From contig JAYUUN010000084.1 in NCBI GenBank assembly GCA_043754535.1, positions 62,001-97,634 of the forward strand: a stretch of DNA of 35,634 nucleotides, written 5' to 3'. Numbering within the stretch: position 1 is the stretch's first letter; each line of letters begins with the position of its first letter. This document shows, piece after piece, positions 2,971-32,422 of the stretch. The notes beneath the pieces are model-generated. The model was given only the letters and a program-made list of their open reading frames with translations. It made no database searches and was not told where the DNA came from. This DNA is from Chloroflexota bacterium (lineage in GTDB: Bacteria > Chloroflexota > Chloroflexia > QHBQ01). The position numbers and the translations under genes are program-made.

Positions 2971-3537
2971 CTAGCGTCGCAGCAGACGGCGCAGGAAGCG
3001 TCGCCCCCAGGAGCGGCTGGCGAGCAGTGCTTCGCTGATCTGTGCATCGCTCAGCCCACCATCGGGGGTGGCGTAGCTAGCTAGCAGGGTGAGGATGTCC
3101 TGTTCGCTGTAGTCGCTGCGGCTAAAGATGGGGTTGGCTAGTTCGAGGGTTGGCGAGCAGCCTGCCAGGTACTCGCTAGCCAGCACCTTGCTCAAGACCC
3201 CCTGCTGCGGTTCGCCGCCGCTGACCAACAAATGCTGCTGACGGGCGAGATTGCCGCCTACCAATCGGTTGAGCATGGTCATCGAACCAGGGTCAAGCCG
3301 CTGGGCCAAACCGAGGTCGGCGGTGGTGGCAGTCGTTGGCGGGGCTGCGGAGGCAAGGCGGGCCACTTCGCGCCGTTGCTCGGTGGTCAGAGCCACGTTC
3401 GGCTGCATCACTGTCTCTGGGGCGCGGGCAGTGGTCGTCTCTGGAGCGCGGGCCAATCCCGCTCGCTCCTGCTCGGCTACCCGTACCCTGCTCTCCTTGC
3501 CGCCGCGCTCTGCCATAATCTTGATCTTCGCCTTCAC
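2971..3537 (-). CDS. Hypothetical protein (188 aa) with an Arg/Leu-rich amphipathic C-terminus
   Basis: Co-oriented within the operon; start is GTG 3537 or ATG 3516; ends SWGRRFLRRLLRR; no recognisable family. Confidence 0.65.
   Translation of the reverse strand: MKAKIKIMAERGGKESRVRVAEQERAGLARAPETTTARAPETVMQPNVALTTEQRREVARLASAAPPTTATTADLGLAQRLDPGSMTMLNRLVGGNLARQQHLLVSGGEPQQGVLSKVLASEYLAGCSPTLELANPIFSRSDYSEQDILTLLASYATPDGGLSDAQISEALLASRSWGRRFLRRLLRR
3413..3453. repeat. Imperfect 17-bp direct repeat with a 24-bp period, encoding ARAPET twice
   Basis: gtctctggggcgcgggc (3413-3429) and gtctctggagcgcgggc (3437-3453). Confidence 0.7.
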
Positions 3538-3599: not shown

Positions 3600-4094
3600 T
3601 CAATCCAACTGCCCCCAGCTAAACAGCCGCCGCAGCCCTGCGCCCAGCCGCGACCAGAAGCCTGGTGGAGTAGGCGGGAGGGGGAGGTTCTGGCCCAGCC
3701 GCTCAAGGTCGCCCAAGAAGCGTTGGCGCACTGCATTGCGCTGCTCGGCGGGCAGTTGCGCGTACCAGCTTGCTGCTGCCGCCCGCGCCAGTTCGCTGCT
3801 CGCCAGCCGCTCGTTGGCAGAGAGCGTCTCTATTTGGGCGCGCACCGCCGTGCCTGCGCTGGCGTGCAGTCGGGCCGTGAGCAGCAAAGACTGCATCGCC
3901 CGCGTGCCATTCGCATCCTCATGCAGCAAACGCAGGCGCGGTTGCAGGAAGGCTGGCACACTGGCGGTGATGTAGCGACCGATCAGATAGTCCTCCGCCT
4001 CCACCGGCTCAAAGTCGTCTACCGGCCCTTGATCGACGGGCCGTTCGCGCTGGGAGCGGGTGATATCCTTGAGGATCGAAAGGTTGGATGGCAT
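3600..4094 (-). CDS. Hypothetical helical protein (164 aa) with a Pro linker and amphipathic C-terminus
   Basis: ATG 4094 preceded by GGGGG; ends PLPPTPPGFWSRLGAGLRRLFSWGQLD; contains no Cys; overlaps the 3' end of the E1 gene by 76 nt. Confidence 0.7.
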   Translation of the reverse strand: MPSNLSILKDITRSQRERPVDQGPVDDFEPVEAEDYLIGRYITASVPAFLQPRLRLLHEDANGTRAMQSLLLTARLHASAGTAVRAQIETLSANERLASSELARAAAASWYAQLPAEQRNAVRQRFLGDLERLGQNLPLPPTPPGFWSRLGAGLRRLFSWGQLD

Positions 4095-5515
4095 AACGCC
4101 CCCAGCCCGTCAGAGGCGGAACTAGCGGAAACCCACTCGCGGCAACGGCACTCGCTGCTATCGTCCAGGGCAGGTAGCCCCTCACCAAAAGGGTAGACGA
4201 GGCGGTTGGGCGCGAGAAAGTTGTACTTCAGCACGTTGCCCGGTAGCGGACGGCTGCCCCCCTCGGCGGGGAACAGTGCATCAAAGTAGTTGCTACCCAC
4301 ACCAGCAGCAAGCAGATTGGTTGTTACCACGCTGGGGTTGGGTTGCACCAGGCAGCCGTCTGGCACCTCCTCCGGGTTGACGGTCAGCGTCTCGCGCAGG
4401 TTGAGCAGGCAGTCCAGGCAGTAGTTGCGCCCCGGCTTGAAGGCGTACATCTGGGCCGAGTGTACCTCCGTTCCCATGTAGACTACCGGCAGCTTGTTGT
4501 CCAGCGCATAGTCATTGATCAAGAGGCTGCTGCTCAGGCTGTCTGTGCAACGGTAGATCACGTCGCAGCCAAAGCCTTCCTTGCCGTCAAAACGCTGCAC
4601 CTTCGCCTCGATCCGCACGTCGGGGCAGATGCGCTGCACCACCTCGGCCAGCACCTCGGCTTTGGTGCGGCCAATGGGGTTGTCGCTCAGGGTGAACATG
4701 ATCTGGCGGTTGAGGTTCACCTCCTCAATGTCGTCGTCGTCCATGATCGTGATCTGCTTGACCCCTTTGAGGGCCAGCAGCAAAACTACCCAGTTGCCCA
4801 GTGCGCCCGCGCCAATCACCAAGGCGTGGCGGTCAGTGTAGGCGGTAGTGACCGGTAGCTGGTCTGCACGGTTGATGTAGTTGGCGGCCAGCATATTATA
4901 GTAGACTGGCACCTTGAGCCGCTGTTCGCCAGGCAGGGGCAGCAAGCTACTACGCCCCTCGTCCGTGACCAGGGCAGCAGCGATGGCGGCAGTGAAGGGG
5001 TCGCTGGGCTGGGCGAAGTAGTCAATCGAGAGGTCGCCCCGCACGATCTGCCCGTCGTGGCCGCGCTTCGCTTCGCTGTGGTAGGCGCGGGCGGAGGCGT
5101 TCAGCACGGGGATGCCGTACTCTTGCCCGTAGCGATAGACGATTAGTTCGCTTACCGGGTCGTTGCTAGTGTCCACGATCAGGTTGGGCTGGCCGAGAAT
5201 GCAGGTGTGCCGGTTGGCCGAGATGCGCCAGATTTCGGCCTCTGCCTCCACATCAGGGTTGATGCGCTCCACCGCCCCAGCCAGAGCCTCCGCCTTGAAC
5301 TGGCGGCCTGCATCGGGATCGAATAGGAACTCGCCATGTCCCGCCCGGTCGAGGAAGGTGTTATCGATGATGCGAATGTGGCCGAAGCCGAGGGCAGCAG
5401 CGGCGGCCACCACGAAGTGGGCCAGTGCGTTCGTGCCTAGCACCACCACTTCGCTCTCCAGCAAAGTCTGCTGGTTCCAGTTGTTGATCCGTTCCTGCCG
5501 ATCATAGCGGGTCAT
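4019..5515 (-). CDS. Tandem ThiF/E1-family activating enzyme (N-terminal inactive plus C-terminal active adenylation domain)
   Basis: Domain 1: RYDRQ (aa 3-7), degenerate Gly loop GTNALA, KAEAL...INPDV. Domain 2: GAGALG (235-240), DDDDIEEVNLNRQ, K285, CTD, CLDC (366-369), putative catalytic C388, PSVVTTNLLAAG, CRC (456-458). Confidence 0.92.
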   Translation of the reverse strand: MTRYDRQERINNWNQQTLLESEVVVLGTNALAHFVVAAAAALGFGHIRIIDNTFLDRAGHGEFLFDPDAGRQFKAEALAGAVERINPDVEAEAEIWRISANRHTCILGQPNLIVDTSNDPVSELIVYRYGQEYGIPVLNASARAYHSEAKRGHDGQIVRGDLSIDYFAQPSDPFTAAIAAALVTDEGRSSLLPLPGEQRLKVPVYYNMLAANYINRADQLPVTTAYTDRHALVIGAGALGNWVVLLLALKGVKQITIMDDDDIEEVNLNRQIMFTLSDNPIGRTKAEVLAEVVQRICPDVRIEAKVQRFDGKEGFGCDVIYRCTDSLSSSLLINDYALDNKLPVVYMGTEVHSAQMYAFKPGRNYCLDCLLNLRETLTVNPEEVPDGCLVQPNPSVVTTNLLAAGVGSNYFDALFPAEGGSRPLPGNVLKYNFLAPNRLVYPFGEGLPALDDSSECRCREWVSASSASDGLGALCHPTFRSSRISPAPSANGPSIKGR

Positions 5516-6726
5516 GTCCGCTCAACCTCTCTCTCCATCACTACTTCGCGGCCCGCAACAAAAGCCTTGACCTTCATCTTCAGCGGTGGCGGTGGCATAG
5601 TTATCTTGCGCGACATCAGGCGGCGGGGTGGCTCCTCCAGACCAAACAGGTTAGCAATCGCGTACTGCACCATCTCACCAAAGTTGAGCGGTGCATACTC
5701 CGGCTCTGGGGCGGGGGCGGCTACGCTGGCAGCCGGGCTGCCCAGGCTGCCCTCCTCGCGCTCAAGGCGGACGCGCTCCTCCTTGCTCAGTTGGTCGATC
5801 ATGTACTCTGGGATCGCCCGGTAGCCGCGTTGGGTGGGGACAACTACCTTCTCGCGCAAGGTTTGCTCGATCTGCGCCTTTAGTTCCTCACTCAGTACAA
5901 TATCGTTCGCCACCTCAACTACGCGGATCGGTATCTCATAGGTGCTGCGGTTGATCGTACCGTCGTGGGTGATCGTCGCCACCGAAATCTCGCTGTAGGC
6001 AAAGCGGGTGTCGTGGCCACCCTTCTGGCCGCTGAACGACTGGAAGAAGCCATCGAGGTCGCGCCCATTAAAGATCAGGCTCTTGCTCCAATAGATCGTC
6101 ACTGGCGTTTCGTCTACCCACTCCCCCACGCTCAAGTTGGGCTGCTTACCGTCAAGGTTGGCGGCCATCTTGAGGCTCACCCGCTTCTTGCTCTTGTCGT
6201 CAAAGAGAACAAGTTGATCGCCCTCCATTGCCACTTTCGGCTGGCGGATGGTCAGGCGGTCGTAGCCAGTCAGCTTGTTGTTGCTGCCCAGGCGATCCAG
6301 GACGGCGTAGTTGTTACGGGCATCGGTGCTGCTGGGTAGGGGAGAGAAGCCAGGGTGGAGGTGCGCCCAAGAGTAGGGGACGTACTCCTCTGGTATCTGA
6401 GCCATCGCCCCCTCAAGCATCTCGCTCACCGTATCCACCGCCGTGTAGATGCGCGTGTTCTCTGGCTGGTAGGGGATGTAGAAGTTGCGGGTGACGGGCT
6501 GGGGGTCGTTGCGCCCCTTCAGTTGGATGGTATAGATTTCGCGGCTGTATTCGCCCCGTGCAAGGCCATGCTCCTCCAACACGCGGAAGTAGGAGCCGAT
6601 GATGTGGTAGAACAGGCGCACGGCACCGGGGGAGATGAGCATCTGCTCAACCTCGCTAGCTGCACTGGTCAGGGTGGTGCTGCTCGAATCCGGGGCTGTA
6701 TTTTCCAGCAACTTACTCAGCTTCAT
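5512..6726 (-). CDS. JAB/MPN+ (JAMM) zinc metallopeptidase with a long C-terminal extension (404 aa)
   Basis: ATG 6726 follows a GGAGGAG RBS; E63 (REIYTIQLKG) and WAHLHPGFSPLPSSTD match H-x-H-x7-S-x2-D exactly; the stop overlaps the E1 start (ATGA, 5512-5515). Confidence 0.88.
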   Translation of the reverse strand: MKLSKLLENTAPDSSSTTLTSAASEVEQMLISPGAVRLFYHIIGSYFRVLEEHGLARGEYSREIYTIQLKGRNDPQPVTRNFYIPYQPENTRIYTAVDTVSEMLEGAMAQIPEEYVPYSWAHLHPGFSPLPSSTDARNNYAVLDRLGSNNKLTGYDRLTIRQPKVAMEGDQLVLFDDKSKKRVSLKMAANLDGKQPNLSVGEWVDETPVTIYWSKSLIFNGRDLDGFFQSFSGQKGGHDTRFAYSEISVATITHDGTINRSTYEIPIRVVEVANDIVLSEELKAQIEQTLREKVVVPTQRGYRAIPEYMIDQLSKEERVRLEREEGSLGSPAASVAAPAPEPEYAPLNFGEMVQYAIANLFGLEEPPRRLMSRKITMPPPPLKMKVKAFVAGREVVMEREVERT

Positions 6727-6819
6727 GCAAGGCTCCTCCAGGCTGGTGGGACTGGCTCTGTGCTTCTCTCTACGCAGTGGCAAGCCGAAAGTTGCAGTGG
6801 GTGCGCCAGTAGTACGGCT

Positions 6820-6848
6820 ATTGTACCTGCAAGCATGCTAGCTGTCAA
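6820..6848 (-). promoter_or_regulatory. Near-consensus sigma70 promoter of the JAB-E1 operon
   Basis: Minus strand TTGACA (6843-6848)-N17-TACAAT (6820-6825), immediately after the prepilin peptidase stop. Confidence 0.8.
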
Positions 6849-26522: not shown

Positions 26523-26843
26523 GTTGTAAGTCTCAAATGGCATAGCACGGTTGAGGCAGCGACAACAAGGCAAAGGCAAGTACGTAGCACAGTGGTCAGG
26601 CGGATTATCATATCCTTGAGGCATCTTTTATCTCCTCATCCCCGCCCTACTGCTCGCATATGTAAAAACCCCCTTGCTCAGAGCCGTTAGCCAGCCTTGC
26701 ACTTGCTGTGGGCTAAGAGCGCGGCTCTTGCGCCGGGCTGGTGGAGAGTGGACGAGCAGGTGAGCCGAGCCGCATGGTGGCTGTCGGCCACCTTTGCTTA
26801 CTTCACAACGAGGGGTTTCGGCGCGGACAAGGCGGGTACAGCA

Positions 26844-29036
26844 ATGTTGATAAAGAAGATTGGCATACCTGATGCGGGCGGCAACGGCACCAGCCGCCGC
26901 GAGGAGGAGCAGTCAGGCAACGGCAACGGCAACGATACCGCTGTCGGAGTTGGGTTGGGGGCGGCGGCGGTCAACCGGACGAGCGATCATAGCGGCCAGA
27001 CCAGCCAGCTTGACGCGATGCGTAACACGATCAGCGGGGTGACCACTCTTACTCGTGGCACAGTGCTGATGGATCGCTATGAGATTGAGCAGGTACGCGG
27101 CGTGGGCGGTATGAGTACCGTCTACCGCGCCCGCGATCTTCGCTTCGCCAACGTGCTGCGCTATACCGCGATCAAGGAGATGTTTGATACCACCACCGAT
27201 CCCTCGGTGGGGCGTGTCCGCCTTGCCAACTTTGAGCGTGAGGCTAGCATCCTCGCTACCCTCAACCATACCTCGATCACCAAGATTTACGACTACTTCA
27301 GCCTCGAAGGCAAAGTCTACTTGGTGCTTGAGTATATTGACGGCAAAGACCTGGAGAGTATGCTCGACGACCGGGCCGGGCCGATGCCAGAGGATGAGGT
27401 GCTGCGCTGGTCGATCCAAATCTGCGATGTCCTCAACTATCTGCACGGCCACAAGCCTCAGCCCATCGTCTTCCGCGACATGAAGCCCAGCAACATCATG
27501 TTCGACAACAGTTCCAGCCGCATCATGCTGGTGGACTTCGGTATCGCCAAGGTGTTCCAGAGCGACAAGAAGGGAACGATGATCGGCACCGAAGGCTATT
27601 CGCCGCCTGAGCAGTACCGAGGTATCGCCGAGCCGAGGGGCGACATCTACGCCCTGGGCGCGACTATGCACCATTTGCTGACCAACAGCGACCCGCGCAC
27701 TGAAACCCCGTTCACCTTCCACGAACGTCCGCCTCGCCGCCTCAACGCCCGCATCAGCCCTGCCACCGAAACCCTGATCATGAGGGCTTTGGAGTACGAT
27801 GCCACCCGCCGCTGGGCCAACGCTGAGGAGATGCGGCAGGCTCTGCTAGCGATCCTAGCTACCCACTCGCCGAACGAAGCGGCTGCCCTCAATGGCGGGG
27901 TGGCGGTGGGCAGCAGCACGGCAGCCAGTCAGCCGCCGCAATCTCCTAGTCAGTCGCAGCAACCCACCCAACCGCAGGAGACTAGCGGCGTGTCCCTCAA
28001 GCCTGGCCCCTCGCGCATGGCGATCCCTGGCACTGCCTTCATGGACCCCAGCAACGCCCCCCACCTGATCGGTGATTCTACCGATATGCTGTGGGACTTT
28101 GCCAGCGAAGATGAGATTCGCTCCTCGCCCATCGTCTACAAGGGGGTCGTCTATATTGGCTCCTACGACTCTAACCTCTACGCCCTCAACGCCAAGTCGG
28201 GCGAGTTCCTTTGGAAGGCCGCGACCGAGAACGGTATCTCCTCCTCACCCTGCGCCAGCGAGAACATGGTGTTCGTCGGCTCCGAGGATCACATCCTCTA
28301 CGCCTTTGACACGATCCGGGGGCGCAAGGTCTGGGAGTTCCGCACCAACGCGCCGATCCGCTCCTCGCCAAAGATCAACAACGGCCTGATCTACTTTGGC
28401 TCCGACGACCAGTTCATCTATTGCCTGGATGCCAAGACTGGGCGGCAGGTCTGGAAGTACCGCTGCTGGATGAGCGTGCGCTCGTCTGCCTCGTTTAGCC
28501 GCGGTAACATCTACATCGGTGCAAACGACAACCACCTCTACGCTCTGGACGCGACAACCGGGGCTTTGCGCTGGAAGTTCAACGCGGGGATGTCGATCAT
28601 CTCCACCCCGGCGATCACTGATGGGCTGGCTATTTTCGGCGCGATGGACAACAACATCTATGCCGTCGACCTGGAGAGCAGCTACGCCGCCTGGAAGTTC
28701 CGCACCGACGGCTTCATCTTCTCCTCGCCAGCGGTGCAGGCTGGCCGGGTCTACGTCGGTGGGGTGGATGGCTTCCTCTACTGCGTAGACATGAAGTCGG
28801 GGCGGCTGGTCTGGAAGTACAAGACAGGCGGGCAGGTCACATCTTCGCCACGCGTCCACGATAATGCTGTCTACTTCGGCGCGTCCGACAAGATGGTATA
28901 CTCACTGGCAACCCGCGACGGAGCTTTGCGCTGGCAGTTTCCCACCCTGGGGCCAGTACCGTCTTCGCCAACGATAGAAGATGGCATCGTCTATATCGGC
29001 AGCACCGACAACAAGCTATATGCGCTGGCGATCTAA
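26844..29036 (+). CDS. Hanks-type Ser/Thr protein kinase with a C-terminal PQQ-like beta-propeller
   Basis: GVGGMSTVY, AIKE, FRDMKPSN, DFG, GTEGYSPPE; about 8 repeats of SSPxVxxGxVYxGSxDxxLYALDxxTGxxxWxF; no TM; ATG 26844 after AAGGCGG. Confidence 0.93.
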   Translation: MLIKKIGIPDAGGNGTSRREEEQSGNGNGNDTAVGVGLGAAAVNRTSDHSGQTSQLDAMRNTISGVTTLTRGTVLMDRYEIEQVRGVGGMSTVYRARDLRFANVLRYTAIKEMFDTTTDPSVGRVRLANFEREASILATLNHTSITKIYDYFSLEGKVYLVLEYIDGKDLESMLDDRAGPMPEDEVLRWSIQICDVLNYLHGHKPQPIVFRDMKPSNIMFDNSSSRIMLVDFGIAKVFQSDKKGTMIGTEGYSPPEQYRGIAEPRGDIYALGATMHHLLTNSDPRTETPFTFHERPPRRLNARISPATETLIMRALEYDATRRWANAEEMRQALLAILATHSPNEAAALNGGVAVGSSTAASQPPQSPSQSQQPTQPQETSGVSLKPGPSRMAIPGTAFMDPSNAPHLIGDSTDMLWDFASEDEIRSSPIVYKGVVYIGSYDSNLYALNAKSGEFLWKAATENGISSSPCASENMVFVGSEDHILYAFDTIRGRKVWEFRTNAPIRSSPKINNGLIYFGSDDQFIYCLDAKTGRQVWKYRCWMSVRSSASFSRGNIYIGANDNHLYALDATTGALRWKFNAGMSIISTPAITDGLAIFGAMDNNIYAVDLESSYAAWKFRTDGFIFSSPAVQAGRVYVGGVDGFLYCVDMKSGRLVWKYKTGGQVTSSPRVHDNAVYFGASDKMVYSLATRDGALRWQFPTLGPVPSSPTIEDGIVYIGSTDNKLYALAI

Positions 29037-29072
29037 TCGCTGCCTACTACGAACAGGCGGGCCAAAGGTCTT

Positions 29073-29909
29073 ATGAAAGCAAAGCTCAGGGTAGGAACAA
29101 GTGAACAGGTAAGCAACGGCTCTGCCAGCAACTACCTGGCTTACGCTGCCCTGCGCCACGTGGGGGGCAAGCAGGCGAACGAGGACAACGTATTCGCCCT
29201 CGCCAGCCAGTTGCCCAACCAGACCGGGGCGGACGGCGATCTCCCGTTTGGTCTGTTCATCGTTGCCGACGGGGTGAGCAGCAGCGGCAGTGGCGCGTTT
29301 GCCAGTGCCTACGCCACCAAGCGAGTGGCCGGACGGCTACTCGAACGCCTCTACCTGCCGATGCTCGGCGGCCATGAGGCGGGGGTAATGGGCGGCACTG
29401 TCGGCGACATCCTGGCCGAGGCGGTACGCGAGGCAAACACCGAACTGTTCGCTATGGCGGGCAACGGCAACAACCCGGCGACGACGCTGACCGTTGCCCT
29501 GGTGCTGGGCCGCCGCCTCTACGCCGCCCATGCTGGCGACTCGCGTATCTACCTGTTCGACAAGGCAGGTGAACTGACACAGGTTACAGCCGACCACTCG
29601 ATGGTCGCCCGCCTGGTAGAGATGGGCCAGATGAGCGAGGCGGACGCGGCAAGTTCGCAGCAGCGCAGCAGCCTCTACCGCGCGGTCGGTATCTCCAGCG
29701 AGGTGGAAGTTGAGGTCTACAGCAACACGCTTGTTGATCAGCAACGGCTGCTGCTCTGCTCCGACGGACTGTGGAGCGCGGTGGAGGGGGAGGAGATCGC
29801 AGCCTACCTGCAAGCTCCCCCCGCCGAGGCTGCGGCTGCGCTGGTCGCTGCTGCCCTGGCCGCCCACGTAGAAGATAACGTCAGCACTATAGTGGTTGCG
29901 CTCGATTAG
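29073..29909 (+). CDS. PP2C/PPM-family Ser/Thr phosphatase
   Basis: NED, IVADG, AHAGDSRIY, DHS, LLCSDGLW, EDNVS. Confidence 0.92.
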   Translation: MKAKLRVGTSEQVSNGSASNYLAYAALRHVGGKQANEDNVFALASQLPNQTGADGDLPFGLFIVADGVSSSGSGAFASAYATKRVAGRLLERLYLPMLGGHEAGVMGGTVGDILAEAVREANTELFAMAGNGNNPATTLTVALVLGRRLYAAHAGDSRIYLFDKAGELTQVTADHSMVARLVEMGQMSEADAASSQQRSSLYRAVGISSEVEVEVYSNTLVDQQRLLLCSDGLWSAVEGEEIAAYLQAPPAEAAAALVAAALAAHVEDNVSTIVVALD

Positions 29910-29974
29910 CACTGCACAGCAGAGCCTAAGCCACAACAGCCCAGAGCGGGCGGGAGAAGGGAGGCAGGGGATTT

Positions 29975-31777
29975 ATGGACGAAACTAAAAGTAGCATGGC
30001 GGGTCGCGACAGGGTGTTGAACATGAGCCATATGTTTAGCACCAACGCCGTGCGCCCCACCGCCGACCGCCAGTTGCTCTATATGCTGGTGCAGGTCGCC
30101 CCCAACCAGGTCCAGGCCGTGACCAAAATCCCACTCAACATCTGCCTGGTGTTGGATCGCAGTTCCTCTATGCGTGGAGAGAAGATGGCCCGCGTCAAGG
30201 AGGCCGCCCGCTACATCGTAGATCAGCTATCGCCAACCGACACCTTCTCGGTGGTCAGCTTCAACGACCGTGCCTCGGTGGTTGTTCGCTCGCAGCGTGT
30301 ACAGGCCCGTGACCAGATCAAGAACATGATCGACTCGATTGAGGCACGCGGTGGCACGGAGATGGCTTCAGGGATCAGTATGGGGCTGGACGAGATCAAC
30401 TCAGCCTACGCACCTAACCTGATCAACTATATGCTGCTGCTAACCGATGGGCAGACTTATGGTGACGAGGATGAGTGCGTGCGCCTGGCTCGTCTCGCAG
30501 CAGAGAAGAAGATAGTGATCTCGCCCCTGGGCCTGGGCGACGAGTGGAACGAAGACTTGCTGGAGACAATAGCTGCCCGCACCGGTAGCAGTTCGGAGTA
30601 TATAGACACGCCAGAGAAGATCAGCGCGGCCTTCAAGAACAAGGTGGAGGGCTTCCGCTCGATCTACGCCCGCAACGCCACTGTCGCTCTCTACCTGGAA
30701 CAAGGGACGCAGTTGCAGAAGCTATATCGGGTGACACCGCTGATCAGCGAATTGAAGTTCAGCGAACCGAAGGCGGTGGCCCAGGTTCTTGGTCAGGCCG
30801 CCCTCGAAGCCGGAGCCGCCGAGGAAGTGCGGCTGGAACGCGAGCGTGACGAGCAGGCTGAGCGCGACCGCCAGATCGTCCTTGCCCGCCAACAGGCTGA
30901 GCAGACGGCGCAGGCGGCCAGCGACCCAGGGGCTAGCAACGCGCAGCGGGCTGGGCGCAGCCTCCTGGGGGTAAGGATCAGCAGCGTAGTCAACCAGCCA
31001 GAGGCGCAGCAAGCAGCCAACAATACAGGGGGCGACCTCCGCAATCTGTTCAACCAGCCGCTCCCTCCTGCCCTGCCGCGGGCAGTTAACGGCCCGACAG
31101 AGCAAGGCGAGCGGCCCACAATGATCGGCGAAGGGGAGGCCCGCGCAGGCAAGGAGCAAGAGCAGCAGCGGATGATAGTGCAGGAGCAGGAGCGTGATGT
31201 AGAGCGCAGCAACACCCTTGCCCTCCTCACCCCCAACCGCGAGGCTCTGCTCACCTCGATCAACCTGGGCCACCTGCGCGCCGACGAGGAGCAGTTCTTC
31301 CTTGCCGAAGTGCTGATCGCACCGCAAGCCCCAGGGCAGCGCAGGTTGGGCCGCCTCTGCCTGGTCTACGACCTACCGAGCATGGAGGGGGAGCCGCAGG
31401 CGGTGGCCGACGAAATGACCCTCACCTATAGCCTCGAAGTAAAGCCGCCCTACCCGGTCAGTGCGGTGATCAAGTCGGTGGTGGAGCGGCTGATCGCCTT
31501 CAAGTTGCAGGGCAGAGCGTGGCAGGACCTCAAAGCGGGAGATGTGCGCCAGGCGACAATGAAGCTGAAGATGGTCGCCACTCACCTACTCAACGCAGGC
31601 GATAAGGATTTGGCCGAGACAGTGCAGCGCGAGATCGAACACCTGGAAGGGTTTGGTCAGGCTTCACGCAGTGGCACCAAAAAGATCAAGTACGGCACTC
31701 GCGGCCTGGTCGCCAGTGCGGGTACCGCCAAGCTGTTCCAGGGTATGAAGCTGAACACCACCAACATCTCACGCTGA
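29975..31777 (+). CDS. vWA-domain protein with a large central low-complexity/coiled insertion
   Basis: PLNICLVLDRSSSM (MIDAS DxSxS), GGT, LLTDG, LGLGDEWNEDLL; helical C-terminus ending GTKKIKYGTRGL. Confidence 0.9.
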   Translation: MDETKSSMAGRDRVLNMSHMFSTNAVRPTADRQLLYMLVQVAPNQVQAVTKIPLNICLVLDRSSSMRGEKMARVKEAARYIVDQLSPTDTFSVVSFNDRASVVVRSQRVQARDQIKNMIDSIEARGGTEMASGISMGLDEINSAYAPNLINYMLLLTDGQTYGDEDECVRLARLAAEKKIVISPLGLGDEWNEDLLETIAARTGSSSEYIDTPEKISAAFKNKVEGFRSIYARNATVALYLEQGTQLQKLYRVTPLISELKFSEPKAVAQVLGQAALEAGAAEEVRLERERDEQAERDRQIVLARQQAEQTAQAASDPGASNAQRAGRSLLGVRISSVVNQPEAQQAANNTGGDLRNLFNQPLPPALPRAVNGPTEQGERPTMIGEGEARAGKEQEQQRMIVQEQERDVERSNTLALLTPNREALLTSINLGHLRADEEQFFLAEVLIAPQAPGQRRLGRLCLVYDLPSMEGEPQAVADEMTLTYSLEVKPPYPVSAVIKSVVERLIAFKLQGRAWQDLKAGDVRQATMKLKMVATHLLNAGDKDLAETVQREIEHLEGFGQASRSGTKKIKYGTRGLVASAGTAKLFQGMKLNTTNISR

Positions 31778-31807
31778 AACCGTGATCGGGGGCAAAAGAG
31801 GAAAAAG

Positions 31808-32422
31808 ATGATCAAGTGTCCAACGTGCGCTACTGAATGGGTTGAAGGTACGCTGTACTGCGAGAACTGCGGCACCTACCTGGCTGCCGCCGCCGAGGTC
31901 GACTCGTCGGCAGCGGCCAACCCGCTGGCGATTAACCTGCCGTCCCTCACGACCAATGGTGCGCCAACTGATACCTTGCGCCCCAGCGAGGGGAGCGGTG
32001 GCGGCGGCGGCGGTGGTGGTGGTGAGAAGATAGGCACCCTACCGCTGCCTGCTGGCGGGCAAGGCGGCATCTCGCTACCCACCCGCGCCCGTCGCCTGCG
32101 CCTGCTGATCCTCAATACAGGCCGCCTGAGCAACTGGCTGCCCGACACAGAGATACAGATTGGCCGCAGCGACCGCGCCAATGGCATCTTCCCCCAGGTT
32201 GACCTCGACCCCGACGGCGGCTACGAAGCGGGCGTGTCGCGCAAGCACGCCCAGATCAGCCGTAACGACGACACCTACTACGTGATGGACCTTGGCTCGG
32301 TCAACGGTTCCTTCCTCAACAAGCAGCGGCTCCCCCCCCACACTGCCACTGCCCTCAAGGACGGTGACGAACTGCGCCTGGGCAACGTGGTGATGAAGGT
32401 GGTAATGGAGACGGTCAACTAG
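31808..32422 (+). CDS. Zinc-ribbon plus FHA-domain protein
   Basis: CPTC...YCENCG; Gly9 linker; FHA motifs IGRSD, VSRKHA, DLGSVNGS, LKDGDELRLG. Confidence 0.92.
   Translation: MIKCPTCATEWVEGTLYCENCGTYLAAAAEVDSSAAANPLAINLPSLTTNGAPTDTLRPSEGSGGGGGGGGGEKIGTLPLPAGGQGGISLPTRARRLRLLILNTGRLSNWLPDTEIQIGRSDRANGIFPQVDLDPDGGYEAGVSRKHAQISRNDDTYYVMDLGSVNGSFLNKQRLPPHTATALKDGDELRLGNVVMKVVMETVN
31997..32023 (+). repeat. GGY trinucleotide run encoding nine consecutive glycines
   Basis: ggt ggc ggc ggc ggc ggt ggt ggt ggt. Confidence 0.8.

Follow-up and report, generated by a model that had tools for sequence, protein, structure and literature searches.

We describe a pair of overlapping genes on the minus strand of a 35,634-nucleotide (nt) stretch of DNA, hereafter the window, from a Chloroflexota bacterium (Chloroflexia; QHBQ01; GCA_043754535.1, contig JAYUUN010000084.1, positions 62,001-97,634 of the forward strand). 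The upstream gene (5512..6729) encodes a 405-amino-acid (aa) JAB/MPN+ (JAMM) metallopeptidase-like protein, a probable deconjugase. It starts with an ATG at 6729, and its stop codon overlaps the start of the downstream gene in the sequence ATGA. The downstream gene (4019..5515) encodes a 498-aa E1 enzyme in which an inactive and an active adenylation domain (IAD and AAD) stand in tandem on one chain, with neither a catalytic cysteine (CYS) domain nor a ubiquitin-fold domain (UFD). The two genes are most probably part of a prokaryotic ubiquitin-like conjugation system.

The tandem-domain E1 and its predicted structure

The E1 open reading frame (ORF) starts at 5515 and ends at 4019, and the frames on the plus strand are closed. 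Pfam finds two ThiF stretches in the protein, the second matching PF00899 at 180 bits against a cut-off of 28, and an HHalign comparison of profiles made from its N- and C-terminal halves gives a probability of 99.7%. Domain 1 (residues ~1-200; 4916..5515, minus strand) carries the motif R3-Y-D-R6-Q7, with the Arg6 codon at 5500-5498, and has G27-TNALA in place of the GxGxxG loop. Domain 2 (residues ~224-462; 4130..4846, minus strand) carries G235-AGALG240, D259, D261, N267-LNR270-Q271, K285, D325, C388 and P394-SVVTTN400, together with a predicted Zn site made of C366/C369 and C456/C458. The Gly loop, Asp, NLxRQ, Lys and Asp that characterize adenylation domains of the E1/ThiF/MoeB superfamily are thus all found in domain 2.

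This motif layout had been reported in a preliminary description of the locus, and every residue listed there was found at its claimed position. In order to assess conservation, homologs were collected among cluster representatives at E<=1e-30 (99 proteins, nearly all 400-600 aa), and an alignment of 135 homologs from this and another search, mostly 22-39% identical to the query, was built with partial or insert-bearing sequences excluded; all 12 of the excluded sequences that were inspected have the same two-domain plan. G235, G237, D261, N267, R270, Q271, K285 and D325 are invariant (135/135), D259 and C388 are each kept in 134, R6 in 125, and both CxxC cysteines are present in 106. Conversely, domain 1 has the GxGxxG loop in 0 of the 135 homologs and NLxRQ in 1, and domain 2 never has RYxRQ (0/135). 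Given this partition of motifs, the inactive/active division of labour is a trait of the family.

Cys388 (4352..4354, minus strand), the proposed thioester cysteine, sits on a crossover loop that is short and predicted with low confidence, and is probably mobile. The predicted local distance difference test (pLDDT) score is below 50 at residues 386-388. In the 134 homologs with this Cys, the spacer from the CxxC to it is 10-26 residues long and the spacer from it to N400 is mostly 11 residues, which is too short for a CYS domain. Beyond the CxC only a short, disordered tail follows, with pLDDT <50 starting at residue 465, so there is no UFD either. The absence of a large Cys domain and of a UFD, both stated in the preliminary description, was therefore borne out.

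The AlphaFold2 model of the E1 has a mean pLDDT of 89.3 and a predicted template modelling score of 0.89. Both domains superpose together on UBA1, UBA6 and UBA7 across 397-434 residues, with Z 30.9-35.0 and a root-mean-square deviation (rmsd) of 2.4-3.4 Å (37 such rows among ranks 1-39). The top match is UBA6 (Z 35.0, rmsd 2.6 Å, 422 residues), and type II BilD is matched at Z 32.5 (rmsd 3.5 Å, 383 residues), compared with Z ~25 for single-domain matches to MoeB, ThiF and UBA2. The aligned ranges begin with model residue 1 at human UBA1 residue 52 and with model residue 2 at BilD residue 5. If there is no gap in these first residues, the modelled R6 lies in register with UBA1 Arg57 and BilD Arg9, which are described as the arginines at the ATP site (PMC12355090 and bioRxiv 2023.09.26.559546, respectively). 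The superposition on UBA1 and BilD supports the single composite active site that had been suggested before, so that the enzyme, as modelled, would be a canonical IAD-AAD body joined to a noncanonical Cys loop.

All 21 NCBIfam models that match the E1 do so below their own cut-offs, the best being TIGR02356 (146 bits vs 275). Longer or fused E1 forms of 1123-3205 aa were not found at E<=1e-20, which is weak evidence. No record covering 80% of the E1 was found in a plasmid collection (253 partial matches) or a phage collection (13); the three plasmid matches that were inspected are Bub-type operons, and a scan of viral contigs gave one single-domain ThiF protein. PADLOC reported only partial ThiF-domain matches to E1-E2 models and one weak JAB match.

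Partner genes and the divided operon

In order to identify genes that accompany the E1, 54 loci were inspected, of which 14 came from a genome-contig scan and 40 were picked by score and flank from 68 profile matches in 401 genomes; one locus is counted twice, and 40 of the 54 are independent of the profile seeds. An E2-like gene is present at 47 loci, a gene for a tag-like protein at 42 and a JAB gene at 46, and the counts at the 40 non-seed loci are 36, 31 and 35. The commonest order is tag, E2-like, JAB, E1, with JAB after E1 or before E2 at some loci. These JAB, E2-like and Gly-Gly partner genes, which the preliminary description had not seen, favour its proposal that the enzyme serves protein conjugation over sulfur transfer. 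Among 55 neighbouring genes scanned with Pfam, no E3 was recognized, and there was no gene for molybdenum cofactor, thiamine or sulfur relay and no DUF6527.

The tag-like proteins are 114-235 aa long; six of the 50 were assigned by position, the others by profile. Thirty-seven of the 50 have GG within their last 26 residues, and a tail follows the GG in 32 of these 37. Among 386 control ORFs taken at these loci, 39 have such a GG. A beta-grasp fold would be expected of such a tag.

The E2-like protein is large, mostly 270-680 aa, with the E2-like domain at its C-terminus. This domain has a Cys in 47/47 members, preceded by HP in 42/47; canonical E2s have an HPN...IC motif. Its model has a pLDDT of 84.9, and its fold matches lie at Z 5.0-6.1 with rmsd 3.5-5 Å. 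In a search over 48,161 chains the top 17 matches all have the ubiquitin-conjugating (UBC) fold, including BubB (5.8), FTS (5.8; which we take to be a UBC-fold protein), UbcH5 and other E2s, and in a Foldseek-preselected set the top 25 are likewise all UBC-fold (Z 5.2-6.1). BilB is absent from the fold matches listed for this model. The large Cys protein is thus probably E2-like, with a UBC fold; we hold this assignment with good but incomplete confidence because Z is only 5.0-6.1.

The JAB protein has no Pfam match itself. Prok-JAB is found in 48% of the members of its Atlas look-alike cluster, the protein aligns with an archaeal neighbour gene (locus L117) at E 9e-20, and homologous JAB neighbour genes at other loci match PF14464. 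Its HLHP...S..D sequence corresponds to the HxH..S..D metal-binding motif that is present in 48/51 members of the JAB family.

Full-length relatives of the E1 were found by the genome-contig scan in Chloroflexi, Pacearchaeota, Woesearchaeota, Nanoarchaeota, Methanosarcinales-labelled bins and Desulfobacterota, and the E1 profile matches 57 of 401 Nanoarchaeota-phylum genomes. Genes for AAA+ ATPases lie next to 14 of 53 loci, eight of the ClpX/HslU type and six similar to the proteasome-type ATPase. Several loci show variations on this plan. Two small archaeal genomes of 1.4 and 2.3 Mb (G041 and G045, loci L002 and L008) hold four and five tandem-E1 copies. In L008, three consecutive tag-like genes precede the E2-like gene and a second JAB gene follows the E1. 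In the Methanosarcinales-labelled L002 (5917-7353), an in-frame stop between the E1 domains yields pieces of 197 and 271 aa, which may be a natural split, a pseudogene or an assembly error. A sub-family common to Desulfobacterota and a Nanoarchaeota bin (L007, L014, L023, L030 and L059) has a ClpX/HslU-like AAA+ gene between the E2-like and JAB genes and a shorter E1 (~413 aa) that ends soon past a conserved Tyr, apparently without the C-terminal CxC. A family of proteins of 250-1000 aa, a candidate substrate or adaptor, follows the E1 in 10 archaeal loci (L112, L114, L118, L122, L123, L126, L127, L102-L104, L107); six members were scanned and none has a Pfam match.

Within Chloroflexota, the E1, tag and E2-like genes are held by 5/5 genomes of the family to which this bacterium belongs (the genome under study, G000, and the four other members, G001-G004). 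Searches of 36 further relatives at order or class level gave no E1, and searches of 300 further genomes from the phylum gave no E2-like domain. This fits a single acquisition with vertical retention afterwards; the source was probably archaeal, a direction drawn from the distribution only. In the window, the JAB-E1 pair is flanked by housekeeping genes. The genes for the tag (196 aa, ending in EKGG, 85% identical to its G004 counterpart) and the E2-like protein (666 aa) lie adjacent to one another in the middle of another contig of the same genome (C48, at 37.8-40.5 kb), with no promoter-like site directly before the tag gene. The operon is split in G001 as well, and is intact in G004. Assembly artefact was ruled out as the cause of the split, given that both halves are mid-contig and that G001 is split likewise. 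In two other members a restriction-modification pair interrupts or borders the operon: in G002 (L148, G002:C154, 560-3196) an Eco57I-type methyltransferase and an unassigned ORF lie between the E2-like gene and JAB, and in G003 (L092, G003:C365, 1-2173) such a pair lies directly before JAB. This insertion may mark a step toward the split seen in G000.

The division raises the question of whether the E1 is a decaying or orphan half of an operon that has lost its partners and has another substrate or no function, as the lack of any tag or E2-like gene in the window and the position of JAB-E1 between housekeeping genes might suggest. However, both partners are intact on C48, G001 is split in the same way, and the catalytic residues are intact. 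The ratio of nonsynonymous to synonymous substitution rates (dN/dS) against G001 is 0.05 for the E1 and 0.08 for JAB; against G004, with dS near saturation, it is ~0.21 for the E1, ~0.20 for JAB, ~0.10 for the tag and ~0.35 for the E2-like gene, and from these sequence comparisons we conclude that the two genes on C48 are under purifying selection. In addition, a near-consensus sigma-70-type promoter-like site (TTGACA-17-TACAAT, 11/12; 6820..6848, minus strand) lies ~90 nt before the JAB start, just past the stop of a prepilin-peptidase-like gene. It is putative, being a consensus match only; two such sites occur in 4.2 kb vs 0.8 in shuffles. Decay is thus the least probable of the explanations weighed here and hardly to be expected.

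Other genes of the window are less clearly connected to the pair. A 164-aa protein with no Pfam family (3600..4094, minus strand) overlaps the last 76 nt of the E1 gene and also follows the E1 in G002 and G004. It is 50% identical to its G004 ortholog (dN/dS ~0.34) and groups with none of the archaeal neighbours; it is possibly a lineage-specific accessory gene. The next two minus-strand ORFs, of 188 aa (2971-3537) and 471 aa (1517-2932, a hydrophobic membrane protein), have no Pfam match and were rejected as parts of the system, since their placement after the E1 recurs in G001 but is absent from G002 and G004. Farther away, a Ser/Thr kinase with a PQQ-type beta-propeller, a PP2C phosphatase, a VWA protein and a zinc-ribbon-FHA protein stand in a row on the plus strand (26697-32422) and form a phospho-signalling cluster.

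Relationship to other E1 enzymes

The preliminary description had called the enzyme a eukaryote-style E1. This holds for its IAD-AAD architecture and for its best structural matches; special kinship with eukaryotic E1s is not established. The domain 1 profile is nearer to MoeB (88 bits) and ThiF (84) than to NAE1 (57) and SAE1 (49), and the domain 2 core is tied between ThiF (115), UBA2 (112), MoeB (107) and UBA3 (98). A likeness of the segment after the Cys to UBA2 rather than MoeB, claimed at the same time, did stand: the profile of this segment matches UBA2 at E 0.03, and neither MoeB nor ThiF at E<=10. A domain tree was built from 37 rows (21 of them references) and 151 columns; it has long branches, contains one UBA1-like eukaryotic protein, and does not have BilD, UBA2/3, SAE1/NAE1 or Asgard E1s among its rows. 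In the best tree, the two domains of the family join each other against all 21 reference rows (support 95/93), and in a 74-row quick tree each domain forms a clade by itself, separate from MoeB/ThiF. Neither tree places either domain inside the MoeB/ThiF/MoeZ group, and hence not within the ordinary MoeB/ThiF clades that had been named as the contrary outcome. Approximately unbiased tests rejected neither a grouping of domain 2 with the UBA1 AAD (p 0.138) nor one of domain 1 with the UBA1 IAD (p 0.185). Independent duplication (convergence) is the better-supported origin, and common origin with eukaryotic E1s is possible.

A far-reaching version of common origin is that a stage between homodimeric MoeB/ThiF and canonical eukaryotic E1s survives in this family. 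A single archaeal duplication would then have preceded the CYS domain and UFD, and, in archaea with small genomes, a cascade of E1, E2, tag and protease feeding AAA+ unfoldases would constitute a pathway resembling ubiquitin-proteasome outside Asgard archaea, fixed in one bacterial family. We regard this as rather unlikely. A group of single-domain ThiF-like proteins (L011-L080; many from Anaerolineae, Planctomycetota, Acidobacteriota and Methanomassiliicoccales), some with a Cys-rich C-terminal extension, forms a separate branch beside the active domain of UBA1, with support of 94 in one tree and 92/89 in the other.

The same comparisons bear on whether the enzyme is a fused MoeB dimer that thiocarboxylates a Gly-Gly protein, or otherwise acts in sulfur-carrier or small-molecule adenylation in the manner of MoeB, ThiF or TcdA. 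Its best family and single-sequence matches are indeed ThiF and MoeB, domain 1 is closest to these proteins and the Cys spacing is MoeB-like. Against this, both domains fall outside the MoeB/ThiF/MoeZ group, the E1 has no rhodanese domain, its constant partners are JAB and E2-like genes, and the 55 scanned neighbours hold no gene for cofactor synthesis or sulfur relay of the kinds named above. The genome has, moreover, a normal ThiS/MoaD-MoeB fusion encoded separately on contig C29, which covers ordinary sulfur transfer. We therefore consider such a role very unlikely. Another ThiF-like domain lies in a 513-codon frame of this genome (G000:C120:78182-78631).

Among described systems, the nearest in layout is Bil (BilABCD), which has the same usual gene order of ubiquitin-like protein (Ubl), E2, JAB and E1. 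BilD of Ensifer aridi (PDB 8TYZ/8TZ0) shares the single-chain IAD-AAD arrangement, the Arg from the IAD and the CxxC plus CxC Zn site, and also has no UFD, FCCH or E3. It differs in having a CYS domain of ~80 aa, from C343 to C417 (bioRxiv 10.1101/2023.09.26.559546), where only 18 residues separate C369 and C388 here. The CYS domain is described as mobile and alpha-helical, and the IAD-AAD-CYS E1 as present in both Bil types (PMC11601596). BilD was not among the best 60 PDB matches of any of the three family profiles. BilB has a conserved His 13 residues after its Cys, whereas a His at C+10 to C+16 is seen in only 5/47 of the E2-like domains, and the tag has no match to known Ubls. Bil is found in defence islands of Rhizobiaceae; most members of the present family come from tiny, uncultured Nanoarchaeota, where multiple copies and neighbouring AAA+ ATPases are frequent, and the family is fixed in a Chloroflexota family. 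None of the rows of the type II Bil table is from Chloroflexi, and a single one is archaeal, Heimdallarchaeota (bioRxiv 2023.09.26.559546). Because two Bil features fail (the CYS domain and the His after the E2 Cys), we do not assign the system to type I or type II of Bil, although its mode of action is probably similar.

The eukaryotic enzymes UBA1, UBA6, UBA7, SAE1-UBA2 and NAE1-UBA3 are alike in their IAD-AAD pair with one active site and in the UBA2-like re-entry helix, and the Zn site is as in UBA2 (PMC12355090). They have FCCH, SCCH and UFD domains, none of which is present here, and the E1 is half the length of UBA1. ATG7, UBA5, UBA4 and MoeB/ThiF have the same bare crossover-loop Cys, but are homodimers with two equivalent sites rather than a fused asymmetric pair with one. 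Homodimers are reported for ThiF, MoeB and Cap2 (bioRxiv 2023.09.26.559546), and ATG7, also a homodimer, is reported to have no CYS domain and to transfer from a Cys (C507) on its crossover loop (PMC12355090). Bub operons share the kit of Ubl, E2, E1 and JAB, and the wide fold search with the E2-like domain ranks BubB first (Z 5.8). The DUF6527 protease of Bub, however, has no counterpart among the 55 scanned neighbours. Their E1s are described as homodimeric fusions without a catalytic Cys that form Tyr/Ser oxyesters (PMC11601596); here both the E1 and the E2-like Cys are near-invariant, and the Bub E1 domains form a separate clade in the tree. The architecture itself is not new in kind, because a single-chain bacterial IAD-AAD E1 is already known in BilD. 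The novelty lies in the partner families and in the lack of a CYS domain. No description of this E1 family was found in the literature searched, which leaves out most subscription papers on E1 evolution and on the discovery of Bil.

Proposed cascade and its role

We propose, with a probability of about 0.72, that the enzyme is the E1 of a branch of prokaryotic ubiquitin-like conjugation that has not been described before, lacks the CYS domain and has four core genes, encoding a Gly-Gly tag, an E2-like protein, a JAB protease and the E1; the proposal draws on sequence patterns and predicted structures. The two ThiF-like domains would form an intrachain pseudo-dimer with one site, at which domain 2 would bind ATP-Mg and Arg6, judged from the motif pattern and the modelled geometry, would complete the pocket. 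The C-terminal Gly of the tag would be adenylated, and Cys388 on the crossover loop would accept the tag as a thioester, as in ATG7 without a CYS domain. The next acceptor of the tag would be the E2-like domain, at its invariant Cys within HP(F)...IC, a step for which the fold matches are weak. The E2-like protein may join the tag to target lysines without an E3, perhaps selecting targets by its long N-terminal part. JAB would strip the tag off targets and, in relatives that have a tail after the GG, would trim it. The tag of this genome ends at Gly-Gly, and JAB would therefore act here mainly as a deconjugase. As the tag needs no trimming, yet JAB is kept under selection, deconjugation, and hence the existence of real conjugates, would be expected.

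Several observations weigh against this proposal. The contact of R6 with ATP is read off alignment ranges of the model rather than from a distance. A conserved Cys at the position of C388 is also a feature of MoeB and ThiF, and is therefore alone no proof of thioester transfer. The GG near the end is missing in 13 of the 50 tag-like proteins; sequence searches with the tag matched no Ubl, Pfam family or PDB sequence and gave no usable Atlas match. No Pfam or PDB sequence family matched the E2-like domain, and its Foldseek E-values are all >0.05. Z 5-6 is the range that the tool terms 'possibly a common arrangement', and the AMPK KA1 domain reaches 5.2. The E1 and tag genes of this genome are unlinked, and a search with one query found no clear ortholog of PAN/ARC-like ATPases there.

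The doubts about the E2-like domain lead to the chief alternative, an E2-independent conjugation resembling SAMP/Urm1, in which the E1 would conjugate the tag directly and the large Cys protein would be a substrate, a scaffold or another enzyme. It gains from a UBC assignment that stands at Z 5-6 only, without sequence support, from the lack of the CYS domain by which BilD and UBA1 pass the tag on to E2, and from the match of the NCBIfam UbaA model to the E1, although this is far below cut-off (118 vs 450 bits). However, the Cys is present in all 47 E2-like domains and follows an HP motif in the manner of canonical E2s, all top fold matches are E2s, and the E2-like gene lies between tag and E1 in most loci. 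ATG7, in addition, is reported to need no CYS domain for transfer, its Cys being on the crossover loop (PMC12355090). Direct conjugation by the E1 thus appears unlikely, and we prefer the four-gene cascade.

Two purposes of this cascade are about equally likely: marking of proteins for AAA+ unfolding or degradation, and antiviral tagging similar to that of Bil. A part in protein turnover or regulation is suggested by the AAA+ neighbours, the several archaeal copies and the family-wide retention amid housekeeping genes. Defence is suggested by the likeness to Bil in layout, by the insertion of the restriction-modification pair and by a distribution that is patchy. The genome has one proteasome-family gene.

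If correct, the four-gene cascade would add an E1 architecture that is asymmetric and single-site like UBA1 and BilD, with a bare crossover-loop Cys like that of ATG7 and MoeB. Two questions would become open to direct test, namely the purpose of the CYS domain and the number of times that the division into inactive and active domains evolved. The bacterial version, a four-protein set with a tag that would need no trimming, would be convenient for reconstitution. The finding also points to a full ubiquitin-like cascade in approximately one-seventh of the sampled Nanoarchaeota-phylum genomes, with up to five copies per genome.

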